Shown here piece after piece: positions 18,975-63,732 of a stretch of 64,000 nucleotides of DNA. The DNA comes from Bdellovibrionales bacterium. Its GTDB lineage: Bacteria > Bdellovibrionota > Bdellovibrionia > Bdellovibrionales > UBA1609. Position 1 is the stretch's first letter; each line of letters opens with the position of its first letter. The DNA is taken from assembly GCA_041690295.1 (NCBI GenBank), contig JAWLHR010000003.1, positions 32,001-96,000 on the forward strand. The letters run 5' to 3'. A program made the position numbers and the translations under genes. A model generated the notes under the pieces. The model worked only from the letters and a program-made list of their open reading frames with translations. It ran no database searches and was not told the origin of the DNA.

Positions 18975-21068
<2,094 letters not shown>

Positions 21069-21277
21069 GGCCGGTCAATTAGGCCGACGCTTCAGGGAAA
21101 AATGATATCCGATCGCGATGCCCGAGAACGCGGATTTTATATCTTCCACGTTAAGTCCGTTGTCACCTGCGACTTCCCGTATGGCTTTCTGCGGATAAAG
21201 CAGCTCTATTTCAGGACGTGATCTTCTGCGGACACGCACGAAACCCGGCGTGTGCCCCACAAGTTCACAGCGGCGCC

Positions 21278-21310
21278 AAAAGCAAGGGAGCCCATAAGGC
21301 TCCCTTTTTG
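21278..21310. terminator. Bidirectional intrinsic terminator between ligA and the histone gene
   Basis: AAGGGAGCC-CATAA-GGCTCCCTT with T-rich tails on both strands. Confidence 0.8.
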
Positions 21311-21338: not shown

Positions 21339-21533
21339 TCAAAGGTGATCGATTACGATATCCCGAGCCATCACGGTTTTGCGACCATCGGCTTTTGCGG
21401 AATCAATGCCTTTTTGGCACAGCCGTTCCACGGCTTTACTCAAAATATCGATGGTTTCGGCCGAAGTGTTGCAACCGCCCTTTTCTTTAATGAACTTCTT
21501 AACTTTGCTGGTAACTACCAGAACGTCTGCCAT
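21339..21533 (-). CDS. Bacterial histone (singlet histone fold, Bd0055/HBb type), 64 aa
   Basis: MADVLVVTSKVKKFIKEKGGCNTSAETIDILSKAVERLCQKGIDSAKADGRKTVMARDIVIDHL. Three helices and the A...GRKTV...D histone L2/alpha3 signature. Strong SD GGAGGAG 5 nt before ATG, so the true start is 21533, not 21575. Confidence 0.93.
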   Translation of the reverse strand: MADVLVVTSKVKKFIKEKGGCNTSAETIDILSKAVERLCQKGIDSAKADGRKTVMARDIVIDHL

Positions 21534-21670
21534 GTGTTCTCCTCCACGCGGAATTCGAAACAAGATTAGCGTCATCTCAAATTAAAGGGAACGCCATTTG
21601 AAATTAGACACTGTGCCCAACAGCGGCGATGGGCCGTGGGAAGTGACAATAAAGGGCTCTTCAAACTAGC

Positions 21671-21736: not shown

Positions 21737-23104
21737 ATGTCAAAAAGAAAGCAGCTTGTTGGCCAATTCGGTCTTATGGCCCTGATTGCCTTAAGTGCGG
21801 GCATTCCCCAGGTTTTCGGGGCCACGCCCAAGCGGGCCACACCAACTGAATATTTCCCTTTGCTGCAGTTGCCCTTGGATGAACCCCAGGTCCAACCGCC
21901 TCGCACGGACCCACCCTCCGCGGAGGACCAGCGCCGCTGGCTGGAATTAAAAAAGTATATCTTAAACGATTCACAACAACGAATTTCCCCCCAGTTTTCC
22001 ATTCCCCATGGACTTTATCAGCGCACCTCTTTTTGGTTCGACATCTATACCCGGTACGGTGAAAACCATCATGTCATTCATCACGTGCGCTATCCGTGGA
22101 TCATCTATCAAGTTTTCGATACAACCCGCACCTTGCAAAACGGTCTCGGACCTCTTTGGCTCAGGCGCGACCGCGCGGAAAAGCTCGCCAGGAAGCAAAC
22201 GGAAAAAATCCGATTAGCGCTCAAGCGGCTCGCACGAAAACGGAATTACCGCCGACTGAAAGGTTTGGAGAAATCTCTTTACGACAAGCTGGCTCATCTT
22301 CCAGGGCCGCGCCAAAAAGTATTTCGGGAAGCCGCGGAAAACGTGCGCTCCCAACTGGGACAAAAAGACTTCTTTTTGCGGGGACTCGCCAATTCCACTC
22401 GCTATTTACCGCATATGGAAGCCGAGTTCAGACGAGCCCAGCTTCCCGTGGAGCTGACTCGACTTCCATTCGTGGAAAGCAGTTTCAATGAGAACGCATA
22501 TTCAAAGGTTGGCGCCAGCGGTATATGGCAGATCATGCCGGAGACCGGTAAGTCCTATTTGATTGTGAATAAATATGTGGATGAACGAAATTCTCCGCTG
22601 AAGGCCACGCAAGCCGCGGCGAAAATTTTGCGTTCCTACTCGCGAGCGCTTGGCGATTGGGCGCTCGCTGTAACGGCCTATAACAACGGAATCGGTAATA
22701 TCCAAAAAGCCATAAAGCACGCCGGCTCTAGGGATTTGGCCACCATTATCGCTCGCTACCATCGCGGCGACTTCAAATTCGCGTCAGGGAATTTCTACAC
22801 CTGCTTTCTCGCGGCACTGCACGCGGAACGCTATCACGAATTGCTTTTTAGAAACTTGCTGCGAAATCCCGTGATCAAACGAGACATCATCCGGTTGGGC
22901 AAGAAAACCCGTGCGCGAAAATTGCCTTCACTTGTGGGTGTGAGCAAAGACGAACTTCTGGAATACAACCGTGATTTGAAAGCGGCTTACCGCCATAATG
23001 CCGTGTTGCCGAAGGGATTTAGACTTTTCGTGCCACCGGCTTCCGATTTGAACCGGACCCGGGCGGTCGGAACTCAAGCCAACCGCCGAGATTCGAAATC
23101 CTGA
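21737..23104 (+). CDS. Lytic transglycosylase (SLT/MltD-like)
   Basis: Catalytic VESSF, GASGIWQIMP, VDER and AYNNG motifs; signal peptide; degenerate C-terminal LysM-like segment. Confidence 0.9.
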   Translation: MSKRKQLVGQFGLMALIALSAGIPQVFGATPKRATPTEYFPLLQLPLDEPQVQPPRTDPPSAEDQRRWLELKKYILNDSQQRISPQFSIPHGLYQRTSFWFDIYTRYGENHHVIHHVRYPWIIYQVFDTTRTLQNGLGPLWLRRDRAEKLARKQTEKIRLALKRLARKRNYRRLKGLEKSLYDKLAHLPGPRQKVFREAAENVRSQLGQKDFFLRGLANSTRYLPHMEAEFRRAQLPVELTRLPFVESSFNENAYSKVGASGIWQIMPETGKSYLIVNKYVDERNSPLKATQAAAKILRSYSRALGDWALAVTAYNNGIGNIQKAIKHAGSRDLATIIARYHRGDFKFASGNFYTCFLAALHAERYHELLFRNLLRNPVIKRDIIRLGKKTRARKLPSLVGVSKDELLEYNRDLKAAYRHNAVLPKGFRLFVPPASDLNRTRAVGTQANRRDSKS

Positions 23105-62112: not shown

Positions 62113-62343
62113 TTTTCCTCCAACGTTGGGGCCTATAATTAACTTCTTTCTATATAGAAATACCTAGTAATAGTGGTAGGCGTGTTGATTTCTATGATTT
62201 CGACCTAAGCTTCTGAAATCCCAAATCAAAACCTGTGGATTGTGGCCTGTAGAAGTGGGGGTGTAAAGCACGCGTTTTCGGGGGTAAATCGAATCCCCAA
62301 AACTATCCCAGGATAAATCCACACGGTTATACACAGTCCCCAT
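62113..62343. other. oriC: Chromosomal replication origin oriC
   Basis: dnaA-dnaN intergenic region. AT-rich stretch at 62134-62164, DnaA-trios TAGTAATAGTGGTAG (62165-62179), GCG, then box TGTTGATTT (62183). Further boxes TGTGGATTG (62234), AAATCCACA (62315) and TTATACACA (62327). Confidence 0.88.
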
Positions 62344-63732
62344 TCACACCCCTGTGATATTGTGGATTCGGCTCTCCAAATCCTCGATATCACGTTTGAT
62401 TTCTGAATCTTTATTCAGTTGATCTTCAATTCGACGCAAGGCGTTCATTACCGTGGTGTGGTCCTTTCCACCGAAGGATCGCCCGATGTCCACCAGGGAT
62501 TTATCGAGGTGTTTCTTCACCAGGTACATGGCCACTTGACGCGCAACCACCAAAGGTTTTGTACGTGTCTTGGATTTCAAATCGGGAATCCGAACTTTGT
62601 AGTGATCGGCGACAAGCTTTTGAATGTCGTCGATGGTGATCGTGGCGACGTCGTCATGGGTGGAGAGCACCCGCTTCACCAAGTCGAGATCGATGGGCAC
62701 GCCCTGAAGTTCGGAGAACATTTTGATCTTATTCAAGTTCCCTTCAAGTTCCCGAATGGATCGCTTGGAAATGCGGGCCACATAGGCCACGACGTCATTA
62801 CTCAAATAAATATTCTTACGCTCGGCTTTGTACTTAAGAATCGCCACCCGTGTCTCGATATCGGGCATTTGGATGTCGGCGATTAAGCCCCATTCCAGCC
62901 GGGTACGGATGCGATCTTCCAAACCTTTAATGTCTTTGGGCATACGGTCGGAGGCCACAATGACTTGTTGATCCTTCTCGAAGAAGTCGTTGAGCGTATG
63001 GAAGAATTCCTCTTGAACCGCTTCACCACGCCCCAAAATTTGGATGTCGTCCATCAGCAACACGTCACATTGGTGACGGTATCGCTGCCGAAATCGATCC
63101 ATTTCATTGCGCCGAATGCTCGAAATACATTCATTGAGAAAACGCTCCGCCGAGACGTAAAGAATGCGGGAATGTGGGTAATGCTCCCGGATGTGGTTTC
63201 CTACGGCGTTAAGGAGGTGTGTCTTCCCCATCCCCGTCGGACCGCAGATGAAAAGCGGGTTGTAGTTTTCCTGACCGGGTCTTTGCGCAATGCTGAAGGA
63301 TGCGGCATGTGCGAATTCATTATTCCGGCCGACCACGAAGGTGGAAAATGTATAGTCCGCATTGAGCATGTCCCGGTGGGATCCTGAACTCGAACCCGAC
63401 ACACCTGAATCTATAACCGGAACCGTGATTTCGGGTTCCGGCGTGGAATCCGGCGTCGTCGAGGCTCCTTGGCCGGTGACGACCAGCTCGATCTGAAAGG
63501 GATTCTGATAAAGCGCTGAAATTTCCGAGCAGATTCTCTCGAGTAAATTTTGCGAGATCCAAAATTTGTGCAATTCCGTGGGTACACCGAGAGTGAAACA
63601 ACGTCCGGAACTACGGTCCTCCACACTCACCAGAGAGGTGGGCTCAAACCACATCTGCAAAGGCTTATTATTTTGATTCTTCGCCTTTAAGCTGGATTTA
63701 ATTTGATGCCAGAATTCCTGCTGAGAATTCAC
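62344..63732 (-). CDS. dnaA: Chromosomal replication initiator
   Basis: YTFSTFVVG, GPTGMGKTHLL, QEEFFHTLN, RELEG and FGGKDHTTV; GTG start. Confidence 0.99.
   Translation of the reverse strand: MNSQQEFWHQIKSSLKAKNQNNKPLQMWFEPTSLVSVEDRSSGRCFTLGVPTELHKFWISQNLLERICSEISALYQNPFQIELVVTGQGASTTPDSTPEPEITVPVIDSGVSGSSSGSHRDMLNADYTFSTFVVGRNNEFAHAASFSIAQRPGQENYNPLFICGPTGMGKTHLLNAVGNHIREHYPHSRILYVSAERFLNECISSIRRNEMDRFRQRYRHQCDVLLMDDIQILGRGEAVQEEFFHTLNDFFEKDQQVIVASDRMPKDIKGLEDRIRTRLEWGLIADIQMPDIETRVAILKYKAERKNIYLSNDVVAYVARISKRSIRELEGNLNKIKMFSELQGVPIDLDLVKRVLSTHDDVATITIDDIQKLVADHYKVRIPDLKSKTRTKPLVVARQVAMYLVKKHLDKSLVDIGRSFGGKDHTTVMNALRRIEDQLNKDSEIKRDIEDLESRIHNITGV

Follow-up and report, generated by a model that had tools for sequence, protein, structure and literature searches.

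The histone gene and its surroundings

The stretch of DNA analysed here (the window) comprises 64,000 nucleotides of contig JAWLHR010000003.1 from a bacterium of the order Bdellovibrionales. On its minus strand, between the gene for NAD-dependent DNA ligase and that for a lytic transglycosylase with an SLT domain, lies a small gene whose translation gives 64 residues followed by a stop codon (Table 1). The product is rich in lysine (9 Lys and 3 Arg, pI 9.06) and contains the R51-K52-T53-V54...D58 signature of the histone fold. The open reading frame list gives the gene 78 residues from a start at 21575, i.e. 14 codons upstream of the true ATG at 21533. An earlier note on this DNA had judged that frame over-extended by 14 residues, and the later ATG is indeed preferred because it is preceded at 7 nt by the Shine-Dalgarno sequence GGAGG and yields an N-terminus shared with the Bd0055/HBb histone of Bdellovibrio bacteriovorus (8FVX) and with the congeners. 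Of the 90 loci examined, most have a Shine-Dalgarno match within 20 nt of the histone start. Comparison with 14 congeners, in pairs that share ancestry and are not independent, gives a total of 399 synonymous versus 47 non-synonymous codon differences, which argues for a real gene under strong purifying constraint. A search of 50,697 phage records at E 0.01 found no phage copy of the histone. The open reading frame is an intact, selected, monocistronic 64-codon gene with a histone-fold sequence and predicted fold, located near oriC.

Table 1. Features at the histone locus, in window coordinates
Feature	Position	Strand	Evidence
ligA, NAD-dependent DNA ligase; conserved convergent neighbour	18978..21068	+	profile match and synteny
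Deletion scar of a ~470-aa lipoprotein-like gene; N- and C-terminal pieces joined in frame, no start	21099..21278	-	comparison with congeners
Hairpin resembling a bidirectional intrinsic terminator, between the convergent histone and ligA genes	21278..21309	.	folding versus shuffles
Gene for the 64-aa histone, ortholog of Bd0055/HBb (bacterial-dimer class of alpha3 histones)	21339..21533	-	sequence, model, structure match
Shine-Dalgarno GGAGG	21541..21545	-	7 nt before the histone ATG
Genus-conserved 27-nt block, then TAATCT -10-like hexamer; probable promoter	21563..21599	-	16-locus genus alignment and matrix score
Another, shorter conserved element, reading TTGTCAC on the histone strand, between the divergent histone and SLT genes	21643..21649	-	genus alignment
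SLT-domain lytic transglycosylase; divergent neighbour, patchy	21737..23104	+	profile match and synteny

dnaA (62344-63732) and, after it, dnaN-recF-gyrB-gyrA occupy the right end of the window, all on the minus strand. The cumulative GC skew of the contig is lowest in the 80-100 kb bins, and dnaA is flanked at window positions 62327 and 63754 by DnaA-box matches. These three features agree with the placement, already proposed, of the gene about 41 kb from oriC and co-oriented with replication: it is 41-42 kb distant from the origin region at dnaA and is a leading-strand gene of the fork that moves leftward. In 11 chromosome-scale contigs of a second family of the order (f2) the ortholog is a plus-strand gene 46-52 kb from base 1, which fits a conserved origin-proximal position provided that the f2 records start at dnaA.

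Synteny of ligA, histone and SLT gene had been suggested as a check across the phylum, and it holds for the first pair and fails for the third member. ligA was found in the fetched flank of 43 of 54 own-family, 11 of 11 f2, 12 of 14 other order or class, and 0 of 10 outer-phylum loci, and the SLT gene in 31/54, 1/11, 5/14 and 0/10 of the same groups; all of these counts are lower bounds, the flanks being 1.5-3.5 kb long and some contigs ending early. The ligA-histone synteny is thus order-wide and the SLT neighbour patchy, and the SLT counts rule out a fixed ligA-histone-SLT module. Since ligA is convergent and the SLT gene divergent, the histone gene is a separate transcription unit, and nothing here implies a functional link to either neighbour. 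The small open reading frames between ligA and the histone gene might be taken for partner genes, a reading that was rejected since they are the remnant of a gene. That gene, lipoprotein-like with a weak PEGA match, is intact directly behind the histone terminator in six congeners (loci L004, L006, L008, L010, L012 and L016), and no other copy of it was found in this genome. The scar plays no part in histone function.

The conserved upstream block, given as lying 61-97 nt before the ATG, is kept in 15 fetched congeners (of 17) as well as here, and a matrix trained without this genome scores 33.9 bits at the histone's own site, the best in the genome and the only one to reach that score. The longer upstream block, which in this genome contains a short inverted repeat, is conserved above the level of the flanking intergenic DNA and fades outside the genus, where 74 loci yielded three weak scores only (11-17 bits). 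On the basis of its sequence conservation the block is probably the histone promoter, although it and the shorter element at 21643-21649 could also be sites for a regulator. A sigma-70 promoter scan returned 0 sites at the histone locus, and a search of mainly open-access literature found no relevant paper on the promoter of this histone family. A regulon sharing the block is not supported: 14 genome sites exceed 12 bits, the best being the histone's own, and of five inspected among the other 13, three lie inside long open reading frames, a fourth immediately follows a stop codon, and the fifth, with a weak score, is ~75 nt before an open reading frame.

The strong Shine-Dalgarno sequence and terminator ascribed to the gene are both present, the latter with a qualification. 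The core of the hairpin (21284-21306) is bordered on either side by T runs, and its folding z-scores against shuffles are -2.87 on the histone strand and -4.23 on the opposite strand; the U tract is imperfect on the histone strand, and a simple terminator scan did not list the hairpin. Similar hairpins follow the histone stop codon in most relatives among the 90 loci examined.

Relationship to Bd0055/HBb

Comparison by phmmer aligns the protein without gaps over all 64 residues to Bd0055/HBb (8FVX, 8FW7, 8CMP, 9EZZ, 9F0E), with 54 of 64 residues identical and E 2e-30. The ten substitutions, this protein's residue given first, are D3E, F14L, G20Q, C21M, I30V, V35I, R37Q, Q40L, I43V and D44E. 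The gene was thus correctly recognized in the earlier note as a Bd0055/HBb-type bacterial histone, but "nearly identical" overstates an identity of 84%, and the accompanying statement that the family is described in one model species does not stand, as the family has been surveyed across bacteria in work of which parts were consulted here (PMC10627809, PMC11390915). An AlphaFold2 monomer model of moderate confidence (pLDDT 75, pTM 0.49), built on an alignment of 48 close relatives only, places helices at residues 9-19 and 24-48 and a third helix of one turn at 56-58, in keeping with the lysine-rich three-helix protein and R51-D58 clamp noted from the sequence. When this model was searched with Foldseek, five HBb chains ranked first (E 4.8e-6 to 1.5e-5), followed by HTkC, HMfA, HLp and eukaryotic histones; superposition on 8FVX gives an rmsd of 5.6 A and a TM score of 0.61, and the Foldseek rmsds are near 5 A. 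The Pfam PF00808 score is 21.0 bits, just below the 21.4 cut-off, and that of NCBIfam NF043032 is 27.5 with a cut-off of 50, so that such genes are often left unnamed.

Residues R51, K52, T53, R57, D58, S9 and K10 are invariant in 90 of 90 sequences, and the alpha1 lysines K12 and K16 are also present here. Similarity to Bd0055, a shortened alpha2 and one-turn alpha3 in the moderate-confidence model, the RKTxxxxD motif with its RD clamp, and the lack of tetramer residues place the protein in the bacterial-dimer class of alpha3 histones, a class that the consulted part of PMC11390915 defines by sequence clustering. With Bd0055/HBb it shares a length of 64 residues, the RKTV motif, the R51-D58 clamp, S9-K10, the DNA-contact residues, S45, A48 and I61, and C39, as well as a stand-alone gene near ligA and the origin. 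It differs in that its host, although of the same order, is a member of a different family (the sequence identical to HBb is that at locus L062), in having upstream of it the SLT gene found at only one of the 11 f2 loci, and in that no second (ZZ-type) histone was found in the genome.

DNA contacts and the proposed mode of binding

Simulations of HBb name N22, R57, S9, T53, T8, S24, K10, K12, K52 and K16 as DNA contacts, to which the crystal structure adds T23 and A25 (PMC11317129, consulted in part); all ten simulation contacts as well as T23 and A25 are identical in this histone. In Bd0055, according to the part of PMC10627809 consulted, S45, A48 and I61 needed mutation before the protein wrapped DNA, and S45, A48, D49 and I61 of this histone are the Bd0055 residues. 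Since the HBb contacts are kept and the residues of archaeal and face-to-face tetramers are absent, a DNA-bending dimer is expected. On the strength of the 84% identity and the residue conservation, two chains would pair head to tail in a histone-fold dimer, which would grip the DNA backbone without sequence specificity through its paired L1-L2 loops (N22, T23, S24, K52, T53 and R57), with the alpha1 helices (T8, S9, K10, K12 and K16) presumably also in contact with the backbone. Like HU/IHF, such a dimer would bend DNA locally; with protein in high excess it may form a coat on the DNA, and it would not build nucleosome-like tetramers.

Abundance, essentiality and non-specific DNA binding and bending have been shown for Bd0055/HBb (PMC10627809, PMC11317129), although the two primary papers, in the portions consulted, disagree on the binding mode, coating versus bending, and a 2025 preprint (bioRxiv 10.1101/2025.09.24.678257), also seen in part, calls the in vivo function of HBb unknown. 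By analogy the present histone is probably an abundant, essential nucleoid protein, and a histone-based chromatin in this organism is a reasonable inference. Overall it appears, at a probability of roughly nine in ten, that this is the positional ortholog of the Bd0055/HBb gene and that its product acts as a DNA-bending dimeric nucleoid protein in which C21 and C39 have structural roles.

The cysteines of the histone

The L1 loop reads GGC here and GQM in HBb, a difference that the alignment with 8FVX bears out as first described. It had been taken to endow the protein with two cysteines, C21 and C39, open to redox or metal modulation. This proposal is not sustained: C39 is common to HBb, being present in 8FVX and in 82 of the 90 sequences examined, and C21 is the majority state of the order, exchanges only with bulky hydrophobic residues, and is uncoupled from C39. 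The sample of 90 loci, made up of the 30 best family matches and 60 loci hand-picked for spread over genera, has at position 21 C in 71, M in 15, F in 2, L in 1 and Y in 1, and never S or A; the 60 spread loci taken by themselves have C 41, M 15, F 2, L 1 and Y 1, and counting by genus (n=61) gives C 43, M 14, F 2, L 1 and Y 1. By group, C21 occurs in 55 of 55 own-family sequences, in none of 11 from f2 (all M), in 10 of 14 other sequences of the order or class and in 6 of 10 from the outer phylum. Among the best 120 of 1113 database relatives, a set biased toward the query, C is found in 98 and M in 22. The M21 of the model protein is the minority state in the order, and C21 as a species-specific novelty is ruled out by its presence in 43 of the 61 sampled genera.

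A redox-regulated variant of HBb, in which a reactive C21, alone or together with C39, would adjust DNA binding as a thiol or metal switch and could thereby loosen or tighten the nucleoid between free swimming and the prey periplasm, would be suggested by the position of C21 next to the DNA-contacting N22-T23-S24 (PMC11317129, in the part consulted) and by its retention throughout the own-family sequences examined. Bd0055, purified with TCEP and bearing M21, would have concealed such an effect from published work; if the switch were real, the work on HBb would have missed it because M21 is the exception. A search of the main texts of mainly open-access literature found nothing relevant on cysteine, disulfide or redox in this family, and three papers on these histones, whose supplements may show C21, held no discussion of C21 or C39 in the text. 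Against the switch, position 21 interchanges with M, F, L and Y, and the lack of Ser or Ala there suggests a hydrophobic site in the protein interior and not a thiol exposed at the surface. All six aligned ZZ paralogues have M at this position, and the two cysteines vary independently, e.g. C21 occurs with L39 in 6 of 6 f14 sequences and M21 with C39 in 11 of 11 f2 sequences. No CxxC-type motif is present; 18 residues separate C21 from C39, which lies 15 residues into the long alpha2, and helix geometry would put the two roughly 20 A apart in one chain. Moreover, conservation is high along the entire protein, so that retention of C21 needs no special function. A thiol or metal switch is thus highly improbable, and the pattern of substitution makes it most likely that C21 and C39 are structural, buried residues.

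Oligomeric state and other histone classes

HLp (PDB 9QT0) and HTkC (PDB 9F2C) resemble the protein in their short alpha2, truncated alpha3 and RKT..RD motif, but at 36-42% identity, and they form face-to-face tetramers in which a conserved Arg and Asn, located where alpha2/L2 ends, link one dimer to the other, whereas S45 and D49 are found here. The archaeal histones HMfA/HMfB and HTkA, which form hypernucleosomes, share the histone fold, the RD clamp and the L1-L2 DNA contact at ~27% identity, but their longer alpha2 and alpha3, sprocket arginine (R19) and tetramer histidine (H49) are missing here, where the helices are short and A48 stands at the histidine position; Bd0055 is likewise described as lacking the sprocket arginine in the consulted part of PMC10627809, and the present histone equals Bd0055 at N22-T23-S24. 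That the protein forms face-to-face or archaeal-type tetramers and wraps DNA is extremely improbable in spite of its homology to the tetrameric HTkC (42%) and HLp (36%), as R49 and N53 of the HLp face-to-face contact (PMC12701072, in part) correspond, when numbered from the RD clamp, to S45 and D49, each of the 90 sequences has D, Q or E at position 49, the histidine of archaeal histones gives way to A48 (PMC10627809), and HBb is described as strictly dimeric in the portion of PMC12701072 consulted.

The ZZ histones share the alpha3 histone fold at their C-terminus, 40-51% identical to this protein, but have 160-190 residues with an N-terminal Cys/His zinc-finger region and were not found in this genome, whose histone is a 64-residue stand-alone fold. 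A second histone match in a frame of 160-216 codons occurs in 17 of 17 congeners, and the six congener paralogues that were fetched have a Cys/His-rich N-terminal region followed by a histone fold, which is the ZZ layout of an N-terminal ZZ zinc finger plus histone fold given in the part of PMC11390915 consulted. Queries with these paralogues against the present genome (2.88 Mb, 99.89% complete, 30 contigs) returned the singlet histone only; the paralogue's N-terminal region has no match anywhere in it, and a PF00808 search gave, beyond the singlet, only a chance-level site. At the site syntenic to the ZZ histone of one congener (contig C27, near 2866-2943) 77 nt lie between the flanking genes. 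Loss of the ZZ-type histone in this genome is likely on these sequence comparisons, and is unsurprising in that Bd3044, a longer histone, is reported in 37% of Bdellovibrionota genomes (PMC10627809, in part). The absence of the ZZ histone together with the lipoprotein-gene scar hints at genome reduction.

Distribution of the family

Matches are found in 102 of 109 genomes of the window's own family at E 0.001 (81 of 83 among the high-quality genomes), counting weak ones of 33-46% identity, and in 255 of 301 genomes of the phylum sample at E 1e-8; the latter include all 80 of 80 genomes of the class (one, G033, only via its longer paralogue). The protein database holds 1113 relatives at E 1e-10, and the names among the 120 listed include "histone H3/H4" and Bdellovibrionales hypothetical proteins.

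Within the window's family, genera g18, g29 and g30 (e.g. genomes G080-G094) have genomes of 1.2-2.5 Mb in which the only match is a divergent histone-like frame of 33-46% identity; on their sequence these frames could be fast-evolving orthologs in reduced lineages. Locus L051 (G068:C5:141979-144554) contains two equally scoring singlet histones ~2.4 kb apart on the same strand, by local duplication or an assembly repeat. Some orthologs (G011:C1:240785-240976, L042, L082 and L085) end 2-3 residues early, without the C-terminal DHL tail.

Significance

The histone belongs to a known family that has been both crystallised and surveyed, is ordinary within it, and is expected in its order; with a match in every one of the sampled class genomes its value as a discovery is small. 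The near-complete genome seems to make do with just the singlet histone and would offer a natural case of loss of the ZZ-type paralogue. The one fact added to the family is that the methionine at position 21 of HBb is a minority state, atypical of the order, so that an ortholog with C21 is the better representative for the chemistry of the L1 loop.
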